64,000 nucleotides of DNA from Candidatus Omnitrophota bacterium (GCA_020632515.1 JACKFK010000006.1:11876-75875); one strand, 5' to 3'; shown: positions 7,431 through 48,875, counted from the stretch's first letter. Notes: generated by a model from the sequence alone, not told the origin. A program made the numbers and translations.

Positions 7431-9054
7431 TGAGATAAAAAATCAGCCTTGGATTTATTTTGTTGGAATTATTATGTTAGGCCTGGCTGTTTATTTTAAA
7501 TCTATTTTTTACGAATTAACATTTCTTGACGATAATGTTTGGGTTCTGGACTATCATTGGTATTTAAAAAATGTTGAAAATGCTTTTAAGCTTTTCGGTC
7601 GGTCAGATTTATTGGCGGAAGTCTTTTATCGGCCTTTATTAAATCTATTATTTTTAATAGATGCGCAAATTTATGGCCAGAAAGTTTATGGGTATCATTT
7701 AACGAATATTTTGATTCATCTTTTGAATGCGTATTTGGTTTTCCTTTTACTTAAAGGGTTGCGCTATTCTGTTTCTTGGGCTTATTTGTCTGCGTTAATT
7801 TTTCTTGTGCATCCGGCTTTGGTTTCTGCGGTTTCCTGGATTCCTGGACGAACAGATTCACTTCTATCGTTATTCGCGTTTTTTTCTTTTATTGCTTTTC
7901 AGAAATTTTGTCAGAGTAAAAAATGGAGTTTTGGTCTGTGGCATTTGTTGGCCTTGACGGCAGCTCTTCTTGTTAAAGAAACAGCGATTGGGCTCCCCTT
8001 TTTTTGTGGGCTGTATGTCATTTTGATTAGAAAAGAGAATGTTTTTGAACGACGATATTGTTTGTTGGAATGTATTTGGCTGGTTATAGCTATCGGGTGG
8101 TTTATCATTCGTAAGAATTTAACTGACCAAAATGATACTATAACTTGGATGATTATTTATCAATCAGTCTTTAATAATTCGTCTGCCTTTGTTACATATT
8201 TGGGGAAAATTATCTTGCCTGTAAATTTGTCGGTCCTGCCGATTATTAAGGATACTCAAATTATTTGGGGATGCGCAGCTATTCTTATGTTAATTAGTGG
8301 TATCGTCTTATCCAAATCAAAGGATTATGGCTATCTTATCTTTGGCTTGTTGTGGTATGTTTTATTTTTATTACCGTCGATGGTTGTCAGTTTTTTGTTT
8401 CATGAGTATCGACTTTATTTGCCGATGATCGGTATTTTTATTGTTTTACTGGAGATCGTAGGAGGGCGGCAGGCGCGGTTATCAAGATGGAAATTTGTTG
8501 TGGTTTTGTTGCTGATAGTTGTCTTTGCTGGGATGAGTTTCATTCGCAGTGACAATTACAAAGAACGGTTTGCGTTTTGGAAAAGTGCCGTTCAAACATC
8601 ACCACATTCTCCATTAGCGCATCGGAATTTAGGGGCCATGTATTTTTTAGTAGATGATTTAGATAAAGCGGAACAGGCTTTTCGTGCTTCGGCTAAATTA
8701 AATTTTAAAGAGCAGATGGTTCATAATAATTTGGGATTGATTTATATGCGCCGGGGAAATTTGGTTAGCGCGGAGAAGGAATATTTGTTAGAAATTAGAT
8801 TTAATCCGACTTATGATAATGTCTACTATAATTTAGGCCTGCTTTATTATATGCAGAAAAAATTTGATCAGGCTGTGCAATCGTGGAAAAAGACGATTGC
8901 TTTGAATCCACTTTATATTGATGCCTATAAATTGTTGGCTGTACATTATTACAATACCCGTAATCTTTCCGCATTATCGTATTATGTTAATCAGCTTAAA
9001 ATGCGGCGTGTTGATTATCCCCTACAGTATGACCAGTTATTGAATCAGCAATAA
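7420..9054 (+). CDS. TMTC/PMT-like GT-C membrane protein with C-terminal TPR repeats
   Basis: Motifs ELTFLDDNVW, GYHLTNILIHLLN and VHPALVSAVSWIPGRTD. Clear TPRs (AHRNLGAMYF, HNNLGLIYMRRGN, YYNLGLLYYMQKKFDQAVQSWKKTIALNP). I prefer the ATG at 7420 (MKINEIK) to the track start at 7348; it overlaps the upstream stop by 11 nt. Confidence 0.6.
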   Translation: MKINEIKNQPWIYFVGIIMLGLAVYFKSIFYELTFLDDNVWVLDYHWYLKNVENAFKLFGRSDLLAEVFYRPLLNLLFLIDAQIYGQKVYGYHLTNILIHLLNAYLVFLLLKGLRYSVSWAYLSALIFLVHPALVSAVSWIPGRTDSLLSLFAFFSFIAFQKFCQSKKWSFGLWHLLALTAALLVKETAIGLPFFCGLYVILIRKENVFERRYCLLECIWLVIAIGWFIIRKNLTDQNDTITWMIIYQSVFNNSSAFVTYLGKIILPVNLSVLPIIKDTQIIWGCAAILMLISGIVLSKSKDYGYLIFGLLWYVLFLLPSMVVSFLFHEYRLYLPMIGIFIVLLEIVGGRQARLSRWKFVVVLLLIVVFAGMSFIRSDNYKERFAFWKSAVQTSPHSPLAHRNLGAMYFLVDDLDKAEQAFRASAKLNFKEQMVHNNLGLIYMRRGNLVSAEKEYLLEIRFNPTYDNVYYNLGLLYYMQKKFDQAVQSWKKTIALNPLYIDAYKLLAVHYYNTRNLSALSYYVNQLKMRRVDYPLQYDQLLNQQ

Positions 9055-9074
9055 GTCAATTTAGTTAAATTATT

Positions 9075-9629
9075 TCATCGCGCATGAAATCCAATTGGTT
9101 TTTTATTTCTTGTGGGTGGTTCAAGTAGTTTTTGGATGGCTGCAAAGACAACTTTAAATTGATAATCATATTTCTTCTCCATTTCTTTAATTTTTTGCTT
9201 AAGATCTTCATGCCCAGCTAGCATTTCTCGCAATTTTGTGAATGTTCGCATGATTTCAATGTTAACCAAAATAGCCCGATCACTATTAAGGACGCTTGAG
9301 AGCATTAGAATGCCATGCTCAGTGAAAACGTAAGGTAAATATTTGCGATGATGTCCGCGCTTTAAGGTCACAGATTGTGACCTTAAAGAATTTGATTCAG
9401 TTTGAATTGGATTCCCAATTTGTGATTTCCAACTTTCAAACTCTGCCTTAGTTAATTGGAACATAAAATCTGCTGGAAATCGTTTTATTTGACGTTTAAC
9501 TGCTTGATTAAGTGCTTTGGTTTCTACTTGGTATAGCGCGGCAAGGTCTTGATCAATCATAATTTTTTTCTTTCTTATAACAAATATTTTATTTTGAATT
9601 ATTTCTTGAGGAATGATTCTTGTTGTCAT
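9075..9629 (-). CDS. ORF6N (KilA-N-type) domain protein, copy 1
   Basis: IMIDQDLAALYQVETKALNQAVKRQIKRFPADFMFQLTK...KYLPYVFTEHGILMLSSVLNSDRAI is the characteristic ORF6N signature. The C-terminus is coiled-coil-like and ends in IGFH. Confidence 0.8.
   Translation of the reverse strand: MTTRIIPQEIIQNKIFVIRKKKIMIDQDLAALYQVETKALNQAVKRQIKRFPADFMFQLTKAEFESWKSQIGNPIQTESNSLRSQSVTLKRGHHRKYLPYVFTEHGILMLSSVLNSDRAILVNIEIMRTFTKLREMLAGHEDLKQKIKEMEKKYDYQFKVVFAAIQKLLEPPTRNKKPIGFHAR
9360..9388. repeat. Perfect palindrome inside ORF6N copy 1 (13-bp arms, 3-nt spacer)
   Basis: CTTTAAGGTCACA-GAT-TGTGACCTTAAAG read directly. It encodes SLRSQSVTLK on the minus strand. Confidence 0.95.
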
Positions 9630-9670
9630 TTTTTACGTCCTTTCATTCATATGGTAAGTTTTATGAAAAA

Positions 9671-11206
9671 TTAGGCGCCCCACCAATCCCTATCCATATT
9701 ACGATATTGAATCGCTTCGGCGATGTGTTGAGGGAGGATGTCGGTTTCACCGGCTAAGTCGGCGATGGTGCGCGCGACTTTAAGGATTTTATCGTACGAC
9801 CGGGCGGATAAATGCAGGTGTTCAATCGCTTGCTTGAGTAATGTTTTGCATTCATCGGTTAACGGACAGAACTTCTTAATCTGTTTGTGATTCATTTGCG
9901 CATTGGTAAAAACCATCGAAGGTGAAAAACGATTAGCCTGACAGCGGCGGGCGCAAGCAGTGCGCTCTTTGATAACAGCCGAAGATTCGCCTTTGGCCTG
10001 GTTAATAAGTTCATCAGATTTTAGCGCCGGGACTTCCAGATGAATATCGATACGATCCAGCAATGGGCCAGAGATACGGGAGATATATTTTTGGATTTGA
10101 GTTGGTGTGCAGCGGCAAGCGCGTTTGGCATCGGTTAAAAAACCGCATGGGCAAGGGTTCATCGCGCAGATCAGTAAACATTTCGCTGGGAATCGAACTG
10201 TGCGCGTGGCCCGCGCGATCGTCACATATTGATCTTCTAAAGGTTGGCGCAGCGCCTCAAGAACATTGCGGTTAAATTCTGGAAGTTCGTCAAGGAACAA
10301 AATGCCGTTATGCCCTAAAGTAACTTCTCCAGGTTTAGGATGAGACCCGCCGCCGACGATGGCGACATCTGAAGTTGTGTGATGCGGCGAACGAAAGGGG
10401 CGTGATGTAACCAGGCCTTGATCTTCTTTTAATAATCCCATGACAGAATGAATTTTGGTTGTTTCTAGGGCTTCTTCCGAACTCATATCCGGCAATATCG
10501 TCGGCAGACGCTTGGCTAACATAGATTTTCCGCTTCCCGGCGGGCCGATAAGAAGGACGTTGTGTCCACCGGCGGCTGCGATTTCTAATCCGCGTTTCAC
10601 ATGGGTTTGACCTTTGACATCGGCGAAGTCAATGTCAAAAACAGTTGCGGAGGTTTGTTCATTCGTTGGTTGTATCGTGTAGGGAGAAGTGGTTGATTCA
10701 GACGTGAGGTGCATAATGGCTTCTTCCAAAGTGTTGACCGGAAATATATTGATACCCTCAGCCACGGCTGTTTCACGTGCGTTTTGTGCCGGTAGAATTA
10801 ATCCTTTAAAATGATTGTTTTTCATAGCTAACGCCACTGAAAGTGTTCCGCGGACAGGTTTAACGCGTCCATCCAAAGAAAGCTCCCCCAGGATGGCGTA
10901 TTCGTGAAGACGGTCCGCGTTGATTTGATCACTGGCCGCAAGAATACCTAAGGCCATGGCCAAATCAAAGGAGGGGCCTTCTTTTTTAGTGTTGGCTGGA
11001 GAGAGGTTGATGGTTACTCGTCTGGCGAGATATTTGTAACCGCTGTTTTTAATGGCAGACCGGACGCGTTCTTTACTTTCTTTGATGGCGCTATCAGGCA
11101 GGCCGACAATAATTGTAGCAGGTAATCCTTTGGCCACATCAACCTCGATTTGCACGGGGAATGCGTCGAGACCAGATATTCCATAACTATATGTTTTTGC
11201 AAGCAT
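9671..11206 (-). CDS. comM: YifB/ComM-family Mg-chelatase-like AAA+ ATPase
   Basis: Full-length 511 aa. N-terminal Lon-like domain, Walker A GPPGSGKSMLAKRLP, Walker B ILFLDELPEF, Cys-rich CPCG insert, and C-terminal LSARSYDKILKVARTIADL. Confidence 0.9.
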   Translation of the reverse strand: MLAKTYSYGISGLDAFPVQIEVDVAKGLPATIIVGLPDSAIKESKERVRSAIKNSGYKYLARRVTINLSPANTKKEGPSFDLAMALGILAASDQINADRLHEYAILGELSLDGRVKPVRGTLSVALAMKNNHFKGLILPAQNARETAVAEGINIFPVNTLEEAIMHLTSESTTSPYTIQPTNEQTSATVFDIDFADVKGQTHVKRGLEIAAAGGHNVLLIGPPGSGKSMLAKRLPTILPDMSSEEALETTKIHSVMGLLKEDQGLVTSRPFRSPHHTTSDVAIVGGGSHPKPGEVTLGHNGILFLDELPEFNRNVLEALRQPLEDQYVTIARATRTVRFPAKCLLICAMNPCPCGFLTDAKRACRCTPTQIQKYISRISGPLLDRIDIHLEVPALKSDELINQAKGESSAVIKERTACARRCQANRFSPSMVFTNAQMNHKQIKKFCPLTDECKTLLKQAIEHLHLSARSYDKILKVARTIADLAGETDILPQHIAEAIQYRNMDRDWWGA

Positions 11207-11223
11207 AGATATATTCCTTTCAT

Positions 11224-11823
11224 TTAAGTGTGAAATCCAATTTTTTTATTAGGTTTTTCCGGTGGATCAAGCAGTTTTCTAATGGCCTCAAAGACAATCA
11301 CAAAATTTTTATCGTGTTCTTTAAATTTACGTTCCAGATTTTCAATTTTTTCTTTCAGTTCTTTATGAGATGACATTAATTCTCGGAGTTTGGTAAATGC
11401 ACGCATAATCTGGATATTTACATTGATGGCTTTTTCGCTGTTAAGAACACTTGAGAGCATAGCAACGCCGTTTTCTGTAAAAGCATAGGGCAAATATTTG
11501 ATATTTTTGCCTCTTTTCAAGGTCGCATTTTGCGATCTTGAATTATCATCATGATTTGATGTCACAATTTGTGACATCAAAATTATTGTTTCTTCTTTAG
11601 TTAGTTGAAACATGAAATCATTAGGGAATCTTTTGATATTGCGTTTTACTTGCTCATTAAGGCGTTTGGTTTCAACGCCATATAATTTGGCTAGGTCTCT
11701 GTCGAGCATGATTTTTTTGCCTCTAATCAAAAATATCTTATTTTCAATGATTTTTGGAACCAATACGTTTTTTGAATTTTGTCGAATTTTTATCATTTTT
11801 TTTCTTTCTTTAGGTGATAGCAA
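11224..11823 (-). CDS. ORF6N (KilA-N-type) domain protein, copy 2
   Basis: IMLDRDLAKLYGVETKRLNEQVKRNIKRFPNDFMFQLTKEE...KYLPYAFTENGVAMLSSVLNSEKAI. The C-terminus ends in KKIGFHT. Confidence 0.8.
   Translation of the reverse strand: MLSPKERKKMIKIRQNSKNVLVPKIIENKIFLIRGKKIMLDRDLAKLYGVETKRLNEQVKRNIKRFPNDFMFQLTKEETIILMSQIVTSNHDDNSRSQNATLKRGKNIKYLPYAFTENGVAMLSSVLNSEKAINVNIQIMRAFTKLRELMSSHKELKEKIENLERKFKEHDKNFVIVFEAIRKLLDPPEKPNKKIGFHT
11519..11539. repeat. Near-perfect palindrome inside ORF6N copy 2 (9-bp arms with 1 mismatch, 3-nt spacer)
   Basis: AAGGTCGCA-TTT-TGCGATCTT. It lies at the position homologous to the copy 1 palindrome (peptide SRSQNATLK). Confidence 0.85.
11555..11581. repeat. Perfect palindrome inside ORF6N copy 2 (13-bp arms, 1-nt spacer)
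   Basis: TTTGATGTCACAA-T-TTGTGACATCAAA read directly. It encodes LMSQIVTSN on the minus strand. Confidence 0.95.
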
Positions 11824-11859
11824 GTTTACTGATTTAGATAGTTTCTTTGTTCACAATTT

Positions 11860-12379
11860 TTATTCTGTATGAAATCCGATTCGGTTTTTAGGTTTTTCCG
11901 GCGGATCAAGTAGTTTTCTAATGGCCTCAAAGATGATTACAAAGTTTTTATCGTGTTGCTTAAATTTGCGTTCGAGGTTTTCGATTTTTTGGGCCAGGTC
12001 TTTGTGAGAAATCATGAGCTCCCGCAGTCTGACAAAAACTCGCATAATTTGGATGTTGACGTGAATGGCTCTTTCGCTGTTGAGCACGCTAGAAAGCATC
12101 GCAACCCCTTCTTGGGTAAATACATATGGGTTGATACCTGAAATGGGCGCCTTGTTTTAAGCTTCCAAATTGGAATCTTAAAGACTCAGTCTCATCTTTG
12201 TTCAATTGAAACATAAAGTCCTCAGGAAATCTTTCGATGTTACGTTTCACGGCTTTATTGAGGTTGCCAGTTGTAACTTCGTATAACATTGCTAAATCGC
12301 GATCAAGCATCACTTTTTTTCCTCGAATGAGCAGTATTTTACTTTCAATGTACTCTTGTGGAATTAAGCTTTGTGTCAT
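11860..12379 (-). pseudogene. ORF6N domain gene, copy 3, split by a 1-nt frameshift
   Basis: ORF 12089..12379 carries the N-terminal half (VMLDRDLAMLYEVTTGNLNKAVKRNIERFPEDFMFQLNK). ORF 11860..12099 carries the C-terminal half (MLSSVLNSERAIHVNIQIM...IGFHTE). Shifting frame by one base near 12125-12130 reads ...YQPYVFTQEGVAMLSSVLNS, restoring the family motif. Confidence 0.65.
12056..12082. repeat. Near-perfect palindrome inside ORF6N copy 3 (13-bp arms with 1 mismatch, 1-nt spacer)
   Basis: TTTAAGCTTCCAA-A-TTGGAATCTTAAA. It lies at the homologous peptide position (SLRFQFGSLK). Confidence 0.9.
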
Positions 12380-12684
12380 TATTCTTCCTTTCTTTCAAAG
12401 CGCAAAGGAATCCCTAAAATTAATTATTATTAATAAAATTATTAATAAGATTCCTTTTTAGTTATTTGGAATAGGATTACAAGCTTTTGGGGGATGAAAT
12501 GGCGGTTTTTAGGGAAAGTAACTGCTTTAATGTAGAGAATGTAAGCTTAAAGTCTTTGATGAAAAGACCTTGCTTTTCCCGCCATGAATACTATAATTAA
12601 TAGGCTATAAAATAACATAAATTATAGTTCCCGTCAATTTTGATAGTTCGTTAGAAAATTTTTCTATGAAAGAAGGAATTTGAT

Positions 12685-13128
12685 TTGGGGAGTATTTTTC
12701 AGAACAAAATACTGATGATTACTCTTTCTGTTTGGGCGATCGCGCAAGGAATGAAGGTTGTCTTGGGTGTTTTCCGGGAAAGACGATTTAATTTTAAGTG
12801 GTTTATAGGAACGGGTGGTATGCCTTCAAGCCATGCGGCTGGAGCGACAGCTTTGGCCACGAGTTGTGGTTTATATGCTGGATTTGACTCAATTTTTTTT
12901 GCACTTGCTGCTGTTTTCGCCTTAGTTACAATGTTTGATGCGCAAGGCGTGCGGCGTTCTGCCGGGCAACAGGCCGCGATTCTTAATCAAATCCTCGATG
13001 ATATGTATTGGAAGGGAAAGATTGAAACAGACCGATTGTTTGAGTTGATCGGACATACACCTTTACAGGTGATTATTGGGGCTCTTATTGGTTTCTTTTT
13101 AGCTATTGTGTTTTACCGAATTTGGTAA
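12685..13128 (+). CDS. Divergent PAP2-family membrane protein (YuiD/DUF212-like)
   Basis: GGMPSSHAAGATALATS...MFDAQGVRRSAGQQA...GHTPLQV is the signature of the acid-phosphatase/vanadium-haloperoxidase-related DUF212 family. TTG start preceded by GAAGGA. Confidence 0.7.
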   Translation: MGSIFQNKILMITLSVWAIAQGMKVVLGVFRERRFNFKWFIGTGGMPSSHAAGATALATSCGLYAGFDSIFFALAAVFALVTMFDAQGVRRSAGQQAAILNQILDDMYWKGKIETDRLFELIGHTPLQVIIGALIGFFLAIVFYRIW

Positions 13129-48835: not shown

Positions 48836-48875
48836 AAATAAAAACCCTCTGAGAGTATCAGAGGGTTTTTATTTT
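48836..48875. terminator. Bidirectional rho-independent terminator
   Basis: Perfect stem AAAACCCTCTGA / TCAGAGGGTTTT with loop GAGTA. It has an A-tract on the left and a T-tract on the right, and sits between two convergent genes. Confidence 0.7.

Follow-up and report, generated by a model that had tools for sequence, protein, structure and literature searches.

A self-complementary DNA element within the coding sequence of ORF6N genes from Candidatus Omnitrophota and other bacteria

Background

Palindromic DNA located inside or beside bacterial genes has been described in several systems. The parS centromere sites reportedly lie inside the coding sequence of parB/spo0J, as Lin and Grossman are said to have found in 1998, and lac O2 in lacZ and gal OI in galE are auxiliary operators that are likewise found inside coding sequence. 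Palindromes are also known from the REP/REPIN-RAYT systems (REP, repetitive extragenic palindromic) and from the palindromic elements of Rickettsia. Here we describe a palindrome located at a fixed place inside ORF6N genes, three of which (ORF6N-1, ORF6N-2 and ORF6N-3) are present in a 64,000-nucleotide stretch of DNA from Candidatus Omnitrophota bacterium (GCA_020632515.1 JACKFK010000006.1:11876-75875), referred to below as the window and numbered from its first letter. The three genes are paralogues and all are on the minus strand. A preliminary description, made from the sequence alone, had reported palindromes in each of them, and had proposed that selection acts on the stem and not on the peptide. 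It knew of no earlier account of such a feature; in agreement with this, we found no description of the palindrome in the literature searched on ORF6N, on KilA-N palindromes and on the core sequences, and no match in Rfam.

In its placement the ORF6N palindrome resembles parS, being a palindromic DNA site that is conserved across many bacteria, has extra copies elsewhere, and lies inside the gene of a protein that, as ParB is, may be a dimeric DNA-binding protein. However, binding is proven for ParB and is a proposal for ORF6N, the folds of the two proteins are unrelated, and parS is conserved in sequence without covarying arms and imposes no protein-family motif in two frames. The likeness to lac O2 and gal OI is that a symmetric operator in coding sequence acts together with a promoter-proximal copy by looping or roadblock, and a pair of ORF6N palindromes in Butyrivibrio proteoclasticus, at -29 and +222, has the same geometry. 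Unlike the ORF6N palindrome, these operators lie in the regulated gene and not in that of the regulator, are specific to a species and not family-wide, and have outer positions that are not kept complementary.

There are also similarities to REPs, which are palindromes of 20–40 nucleotides (nt) flanking one linked gene, with a conserved apex and variable but complementary stems, and which act as single-strand hairpins. In contrast to the ORF6N palindrome, which is in frame, REPs are extragenic, number tens to hundreds per genome, and have an HUH Y1 transposase as their partner. In the 64-kb window, members of the ORF6N class occur only inside the ORF6N genes, with no flanking non-coding copy, and the encoded proteins belong to PF10543 and matched no Pfam transposase family. 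The Rickettsia palindromic elements are closer in that they are palindromic DNA kept in frame where a protein tolerates it, with the peptide as a passenger, but they are mobile repeats of 100–150 base pairs (bp) spread over many unrelated genes of one genus, whereas the ORF6N element measures 25–31 bp and keeps one fixed position in one family across phyla. Nor is its distribution that of such elements or of miniature inverted-repeat transposable elements: among 215 non-redundant ORF6N loci (847 kb, counting palindromes with at least 10 of 12 pairs), 223 copies lie in the gene, 42 lie within about 110 nt of it, and there are few elsewhere.

Results and discussion

Palindromes in the ORF6N genes of the window

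All four palindromes that had been reported are present, as read on the plus strand. On the sense strand each falls on one block of nine codons, x-R/K/M-S/F-Q-x-V/A/G-T/S-L/S-x (motif L-R-S-Q-x-V/A-T-L/S-K), in a single register in which nucleotide p pairs with nucleotide 26-p and the centre is nucleotide 13 of the 27-nt block, so that they do occupy the same point of the protein in each copy. The palindrome of ORF6N-1 (c1, 9360-9388, CTTTAAGGTCACA-GAT-TGTGACCTTAAAG) has 13 of 13 pairs, or 11 of 12 in the family register with its centre at 9374, and encodes LRSQSVTLK. ORF6N-2 contains two palindromes. One of these, c2a, is an odd-centred block of 25 nt (11517-11541, centre 11529) with 10 of 12 pairs and the core TCGCA/TGCGA, which encodes SRSQNATLK and which scores 8/9, as first given, when it is taken as 11519-11539. 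The other, c2b (11555-11581, centre 11568), is a perfect 13+1+13 palindrome encoding LMSQIVTSN; the 13 of 13 pairs claimed for it stand, but its spacing from c2a, put at 20 nt, is actually 15 nt, or 39 nt from centre to centre. As c2b shares both motif and register with c2a, it is a tandem duplicate and not another element. In ORF6N-3, c3 (12156-12182, the feature having earlier been ended at 12082 in error) has 12 of 13 pairs (11/12 in the family register), its centre at 12169 and the core TTCCAA/TTGGAA, and encodes LRFQFGSLK. The compensatory changes that had been noted between the copies, TCA/GTG against TCG/GCG against TTC/GGA, are correct. ORF6N-1 also contains a decayed extra copy (9407-9431, centre 9419, TTGGATTCCCAA T TTGTGATTTCCA) with 8 of 12 pairs and the peptide WKSQIGNPI, which aligns with c2b. 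Across the 64 kb there are four odd palindromes with at least 11 of 12 pairs, and three of these are the ORF6N copies; the fourth, at 48843-48867 (AACCCTCTGAGA-G-TATCAGAGGGTT), has a sequence unrelated to that of the ORF6N class.

Some pairs are unavoidable given the peptide, since a T in the Ser codon faces an A in the Thr codon and a C in the Gln codon faces a G in the codon for Val, Ala or Gly; the proper null is therefore one that keeps the peptide and redraws the codons. When codons were drawn according to the window's own usage, the probability of obtaining at least the observed number of pairs was 2.6e-4 for c1, 6.2e-4 for c2a, 4.2e-4 for c2b and 2.0e-4 for c3. When whole genes were recoded, the best palindrome of the real gene was matched in 0.3%, 0.03% and 0% of 3000 trials for the three genes. 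The window has a G+C content of 36%, and the palindromes use codons that are rare in it: AGG (8% of Arg codons), ACC (14% of Thr), TCG (15% of Ser) and GTG (24% of Val).

Conservation across the ORF6N family

Homologous DNA was collected from one genome per species (80 loci), from IMG/VR viral contigs (80), from metagenome contigs (80) and from annotated plasmids of cultured bacteria. Among 174 non-identical ORF6N genes, the best palindrome of the linker has 12 of 12 pairs in 63 genes, 11/12 in 62, 10/12 in 36, 9/12 in 12 and 8/12 in a single gene; an odd-centred palindrome of at least 9/12 is thus present in 173 of the 174, and one of at least 10/12 in 161. The host phyla include Omnitrophota, Planctomycetota, Verrucomicrobiota, Nitrospirota, Pseudomonadota, Bacteroidota, Bacillota, Campylobacterota, Patescibacteria and others, and there are cultured species among the carriers (Legionella pneumophila, Bacteroides ovatus, Butyrivibrio proteoclasticus and Sulfuricurvum kujiense). 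ORF6N proteins of such species include WP_058452974.1 (L. pneumophila plasmid NZ_CP048619), WP_042258743.1 (Butyrivibrio B316 pCY186) and WP_224263102.1 (B. ovatus). The place of the element is fixed: in 143 of 158 genes, its centre precedes the end of PYAFT by 17–20 codons. The palindrome is odd-centred and 25–31 bp long, with the consensus TTGAGGTCRCAA-N-TTGYGACCTCAA, in which the core TC(A/G)CAA-N-TTG(T/C)GA is near-invariant and the outer arms vary in sequence with their complementarity kept. C10, A11, T15 and G16 are found in at least 138 of 140 copies and A12 in 93%, and synonymous sites are among these positions.

The excess of pairing was also measured on 94 unique 27-mers that were defined from the peptide alone. 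These have a mean of 10.9 Watson-Crick pairs out of 12, compared to 4.99 ± 0.155 with random synonymous codons. The adjacent RGxNIKYLP segment, which is equally conserved, provides an internal negative control, with 6.17 pairs versus 5.71 expected, and since it has almost no excess palindromy the signal is not a general property of ORF6N genes. A second apparent palindrome over RGKNIKYLPY (9/12 in ORF6N-2) was rejected on the same numbers, as its conservation does not go beyond what the peptide predicts. Codon-shuffled controls that keep the peptide therefore fail to match the observed palindromy, and homologues do not lack self-complementarity, these being the two points on which the preliminary description had asked that its proposal be judged. 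The number of palindrome/motif units in the linker ranges from one to three among close homologues (P0013, P0103, P0005, P0020 and others; for example SRSQSVTLNLRSQFVTSNQEEHSRSQYATLK), and one locus, L029, carries three DNA copies of the palindrome; this varying number suggests duplication and loss of the unit.

Covariation and reading frames

Codon choice within the motif follows the pairing partner. Of the 50 TCA codons for Ser that face Val or Ala at residue 6, 48 face Val, and TCG faces Ala in 24 of 24 cases. Several codons are nearly fixed, including Val GTG (47/48), Ala GCG (26/26), Gln CAA (87/88), Ile ATT (35/35) and Phe TTT (37/37). For Gly, the codon is GGA where the partner is TTC and GGC where it is TGC; for Arg, AGG is matched by Thr ACC and AGA by Ile ATC. 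Amino acids also covary by base pairing, as seen in the combinations Leu(TTA)-Leu(TTA)Lys, Leu(TTG)-Ser(TCA), Ser(TCA)-Leu(TTG) and Trp(TGG)-Ser(TCC). Over the 140 copies, 87.3% of cells are paired, versus 68.7% after shuffling and 27–43% when partners are slid, the paired percentage being biased upward because these copies were selected by palindromy; cells with double changes number 413 versus 140 ± 9, and 12 of the 15 pairs show double changes.

In one subfamily (14 genes) the same DNA palindrome is found one base out of phase, for example AACTGGTCACAA-A-TTGTGACCGGTT, so that it encodes ELVTNCDRF instead of LRSQIVTLK. This subfamily has compensatory variants of its own, with ELITNCDKF encoded by AACTTATCACAA/TTGTGATAAGTT and ELVPIWHQF by AACTGGTGCCAA-T-TTGGCACCAGTT, and includes genes on a Legionella pneumophila plasmid and on a 4.1-kb Segatella copri plasmid; the two out-of-phase genes that were scanned against Pfam (L162 and L166) are members of PF10543. 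The Segatella copri plasmid (L166, NZ_CP152486, 4140 bp) is cryptic, and just two genes are annotated on it, one for a replication initiator and one of the ORF6N family that carries a divergent palindrome, AGGTTATCAAAA-A-ATTTGATAACCT, in the second frame; the plasmid represents a minimal system.

That one palindrome is read in two frames argues that the encoded peptide is a passenger. Together, the fixed synonymous codons, the amino acids driven by pairing, the second frame and the non-coding copies described below identify a nucleic-acid element tied to ORF6N genes. The element is real, has a fixed place in the gene and is selected at the nucleotide level, with its peptide largely a passenger, and in this the proposal of selection on the stem is borne out. 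The simplest alternative, that the palindrome is a by-product of a conserved peptide and codon bias, arising by chance or through protein-level selection only, is refuted. Some of the pairing is indeed forced by the peptide, and recoded peptides still reach about 5 of 12 pairs, but real genes exceed this mean by the wide margin given above, their near-fixed synonymous codons covary with their partners, and genome-rare codons are used; the same DNA would also not be expected in two frames, or in non-coding copies, on this account.

Copies outside the gene and look-alikes

In the 215 loci, 37 copies of the palindrome lie upstream of the ORF6N gene (29 of them within 110 nt of its start) and 14 lie downstream (13 within 92 nt of its end). 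A flanking non-coding copy is present in 38 loci (18%), often as one to three copies. In Butyrivibrio proteoclasticus (L164) a copy 29 nt upstream of the ATG has arms identical to those of the internal copy (TCGAGATGCCAA); it ends 4 nt before the ribosome-binding site and lies between a plausible promoter and that site. On the Legionella pneumophila plasmid (L161), the arms of a copy 18 nt past the stop codon are those of the internal copy (TTAAGGTCACAA). In general, palindromes outside and inside the gene at one locus have different bases at the variable positions, each being self-complementary. Their arm identity is 7.9, versus 7.55 for random pairs; copies from the same locus thus resemble each other no more than random pairs do, and a cognate specificity co-evolving at the variable positions is not supported. 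There is no enrichment of isolated half-sites upstream of ORF6N genes, which indicates that the unit is the whole palindrome. In a group of human-gut Bacteroidota elements (L110, L116, L120, L130, L133, L136 and L140, at about 2422-2446; L165), a site-specific integrase gene ends approximately 15–20 nt before the palindrome AACTGGTCACAA-N-TTGTGACCAGTC, the ORF6N start follows approximately 45 nt after it, and RadC/JAB and ArdA genes are located downstream.

The core GGTCRCAA-N-TTGYGACC also occurs away from ORF6N genes. When IMG/VR was scanned starting from this pattern, at least 120 stretches matched, with ORF6N genes at only 19 of the 109 distinct sites among the matches listed; scrambled-core controls returned 81 and 37 matches. 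The sites that lack an ORF6N gene are genuine hairpins; they adjoin capsid or structural genes in a small number of phage lineages, and A or T runs accompany 45% of them. Phage contigs of this kind (L167, L189, L203, L207, L218, L230, L233, L275 and others) share long hairpins in which this core recurs, such as AAGGTAGGGGTCGCAA-N-TTGCGACCTCTATTTT, and have no ORF6N gene; A and T runs are often found on both sides of the hairpins, suggesting that these are bidirectional terminators. Although they have the core and extended stems in common with the ORF6N palindrome, they are mostly intergenic, and the window copies have no T-runs. We therefore rejected the phage hairpins as members of the class and regard them as unrelated look-alikes.

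DNA or RNA

It is possible, though we consider it unlikely, that the element functions at the RNA level, as a hairpin of the ORF6N transcript found in the 5' untranslated region (UTR), the coding sequence and the 3' UTR, which would steer mRNA stability, translation or termination and might be bound by the ORF6N protein. Single-strand folding gives stable structures at z-scores of about -6: c1 folds at -17.1 kcal/mol (z about -5.7) and the ORF6N-2 pair of c2a and c2b at -26.8 kcal/mol (z=-6.3). The fold of c3 is weak (-8.5 kcal/mol). The flanking copies, at up to about 110 nt from the gene start or 92 nt from its end, are plausibly within the transcript, and the position of the Butyrivibrio upstream copy, stopping just before the ribosome-binding site, would suit such a role. 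The downstream copy of L104 is extended and followed by a T-run, the same-core phage hairpins with their A or T runs are terminator-like, and RNA hairpins bound by proteins typically combine a conserved top with a lower stem that varies yet stays complementary. Against this, the sense and antisense strands of the window copies fold equally well (c1 at -17.9 kcal/mol on the antisense strand). The window copies are not intrinsic terminators, being inside reading frames and followed by AAAG or AAAT with no T-run, and most flanking copies also lack a T-run, L104 being the exception. A search of window positions 8800-12700 against Rfam 15 (E up to 10) returned only chance-level matches, of which the best reached 22.7 bits (gathering score 75) and none was specific to the palindromes. 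The only match to a CRISPR direct repeat scored 18.7 bits versus a gathering score of 37 (E=7.9), and with one or two in-frame copies per gene the palindromes do not form a CRISPR array.

An RNA stem would also be expected to tolerate G·U pairs, and these are scarce in the pair table of the 140 copies. On the gene-sense strand of the non-coding copies, G·T and A·C mismatches are about equally frequent (12 versus 16, and 9 versus 12), a parity that would be very unlikely (P=3e-4 and 2e-3) were G·T to account for 75% of transition mismatches. On the sense strand of the coding copies G·T is rarer than A·C (12 versus 38), but these counts are confounded by coding constraints and the argument therefore rests on the non-coding copies. 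Complementarity is kept up to the 1-nt centre: A11-T15 is invariant, and A12-T14, directly beside the centre, is present in 103 of 140 copies. A folded strand cannot use the 12-14 pair, and its conservation thus leans towards DNA. The non-coding copies are symmetric and have no strand-specific feature. The lack of wobble tolerance, the pairing up to the centre and the symmetry of the non-coding copies together favour DNA over mRNA, and the evidence on function leans to a DNA-level site and away from an mRNA hairpin. The outer arms, variable yet complementary, point either to intrastrand pairing in a hairpin or cruciform or to homogenisation of the arms by template switching.

The second of these processes could, in principle, maintain the palindrome by itself. 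In quasipalindrome correction, intrastrand template switching copies or reverts mutations in an arm, producing covariation without selection on pairing, and a permissive linker would tolerate the result. This would yield exactly the paired two-arm changes that are seen, and work by Ripley and by the Lovett laboratory is said to show that it is faster than base substitution. It is consistent with outer arms that drift yet stay complementary and that differ even within one locus, beyond any single protein specificity, with a passenger peptide in two frames, with the poor order of the linker in an AlphaFold2 model, and with the symmetry of G·T and A·C. However, it is a mutational process and not a functional element, and it leaves unexplained the near-invariant core with its synonymous sites, the fixed position across phyla, the extra copies specifically beside ORF6N genes, and the origin of the element; the decayed duplicate at 9419 indicates, moreover, that correction is not absolute. 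As a complete account we find it improbable, and in our opinion quasipalindrome correction probably contributes in any case but is not the whole story. We also judge it quite improbable that the palindrome is a site of recombination or mobility, that is, a hairpin or cruciform for a recombinase, a transposase or a single-strand DNA process of ORF6N-carrying mobile elements. ORF6N genes often have recombinases as neighbours, and such a role would fit the 13 viral loci in which the gene directly follows a Bacteroidota integrase and the spacer between the two holds the palindrome, the tyrosine recombinase that adjoins the gene in Legionella LPE509, the Tn3 transposase that does so in Sulfuricurvum, the loci with copies on both sides of the gene, and an integrase module with paired KilA-N/ORF6N genes that has been described in a preprint. 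Many loci, including that of the window, nevertheless have no recombinase nearby, and the element is found in the gene at a fixed codon position and not at element ends. The cores of tyrosine recombinase sites have an overlap region of 6–8 bp and those of serine invertases are 2 bp, neither of which is matched by a 1-nt centre. A recombination breakpoint at the palindrome, hinted at by tblastn in that copies 2 and 3 differ more in their N-terminal half, was rejected, as the nucleotide identity profile of the window paralogues climbs gradually toward the 3' end with no break at that point.

The ORF6N protein as a candidate partner

The three window copies match PF10543 at 112.8, 121.1 and 93.7 bits (gathering score 27.8), and homologues from Legionella, Butyrivibrio, Bacteroides, Sulfuricurvum and Segatella, covering both reading-frame subfamilies, match it at 95–122 bits. 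Relatives are abundant, with more than 8000 scored in one search, and the family is common on plasmids, integrative elements and phages; the PHROGs label for relatives of the window proteins is 'anti-repressor'. In the AlphaFold2 model of ORF6N-2, the palindrome segment is located between the FMFQL strand and the (K)YLPYAFT strand and is of low confidence (predicted local distance difference test score, pLDDT, 45–69), and the domain is followed by a long helix at residues 121–159. A search of the model against PDB structures gave no significant match, the best being a SKI/Dachshund domain (E=1.2). ORF6N-1 and ORF6N-2 are full-length matches to PADLOC PDC-S05 (PDLC04856), a candidate single-gene phage-defence family, with E=9e-60 and E=3.6e-63, respectively, the latter over profile positions 4-175 of 177. 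A preprint reports that T7 and T5 plate approximately 1000-fold less well in the presence of one PDC-S05 representative, a different protein that is described with a RhuM domain.

We favour, tentatively and at a little short of even confidence, the explanation that the palindrome acts as DNA and is most likely the cis recognition site of the ORF6N protein itself. The ORF6N protein is suggested as the binder by its DNA-binding domain with a long helix in the model and by the placement of the site, a two-fold symmetric palindrome inside the gene of its candidate binder, as for parS and ParB. An N-terminal DNA-binding domain with a long C-terminal helix could form a dimer that fits a two-fold symmetric site. 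Binding inside the gene, together with the nearby upstream or downstream copies where these are present, might then bring about autoregulation by roadblock or looping. By analogy to parS inside parB and to lac O2 and gal OI in coding sequence, a site in the gene would keep the ORF6N protein and its target genetically inseparable. The complementary variable arms may mean that the site works as an extruded hairpin or cruciform, or that its arms are homogenised by intrastrand template switching.

Several observations weigh against recognition by the ORF6N protein. The external and internal copies of a locus usually differ at variable positions, so that the protein could read the conserved core at most, and a plain double-stranded operator needs no complementary outer arms. 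Isolated half-sites are not enriched upstream, and flanking copies occur in only about 18% of loci and are absent from the window. The upstream copy of Butyrivibrio, between a plausible promoter and the ribosome-binding site, fits a 5'-UTR RNA hairpin as well, and the look-alike hairpins that share the core serve unrelated phage contigs as terminator-like structures.

Genes and genomic setting in the window

ORF6N-1 (9075-9629, minus strand) encodes a protein of 184 amino acids with an ORF6N domain (PF10543, E=9.8e-33) and a C-terminal helical region. ORF6N-2 (11224-11796, minus strand) encodes 190 amino acids from the ATG at 11796, the mechanically defined open reading frame (ORF) extending to 11823; it matches PF10543 with E=2.5e-35 and is 99% identical to P0001, a Candidatus Omnitrophica protein. 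ORF6N-3 (11860-12379, minus strand) is a frameshifted copy made up of ORFs at 12089-12379 and 11860-12099, the N-terminal part of which matches PF10543 with E=8.5e-27. The +1 frameshift is due to an extra base in a GGG run at 12129-12131 (CCC on the coding strand), and tblastn switches frame at 12128/12129. It lies approximately 25 nt downstream of c3 in the mRNA sense; removal of one base restores RYQPYVFTQEGVAMLSSVLN, and c3 is still 11/12. ORF6N-3 is either a pseudogene or the product of a sequencing or assembly error.

A gene for a ComM/YifB-type Mg-chelatase-like ATPase (9671-11206) is located between ORF6N-1 and ORF6N-2. The order ORF6N - comM/yifB - ORF6N recurs, being identical in L009, and in L001, L018 and L037 comM adjoins one ORF6N gene. 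This arrangement may be an operon, or it may reflect an insertion hotspot at comM. Upstream of ORF6N-3, 25–78 nt from its start, there is a 9-bp inverted repeat, AAAGGAATC ... GATTCCTTT (12404-12412 and 12449-12457), which encloses an AT-rich palindrome (12424-12448, centre 12436) with 10 of 12 pairs. GATTCC is common to the core of c3 and to this inverted repeat, and it is possible that a promoter or operator region lies there.

Conclusions

The ORF6N palindrome, for which we found no prior description, may be a cis site embedded in the gene of its partner. What is seen in Pfam as a protein motif (LRSQIVTS-like) is the translation of a conserved DNA element, and selection on nucleic acid has dictated protein sequence across phyla. 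This calls for caution in the reading of conserved motifs and coevolving residues in proteins. The ORF6N family, uncharacterised but abundant and overlapping with the PDC-S05 defence candidates, gains a concrete and testable candidate for a cis partner, and since Legionella pneumophila, Bacteroides ovatus, Butyrivibrio proteoclasticus and Sulfuricurvum kujiense are in culture and carry the element, it is experimentally accessible now. A broader proposal, which is possible but which we hold to be doubtful on balance, is that the ORF6N gene is a self-contained module of protein plus site, in which the encoded dimer recognises the 25-bp palindrome, perhaps as a hairpin or cruciform, and the palindrome has been in the gene since before the family diversified, the site overriding the genetic code locally. 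If so, a built-in site in a family overlapping PDC-S05 would set the expression of the protein itself or mark 'self' DNA.

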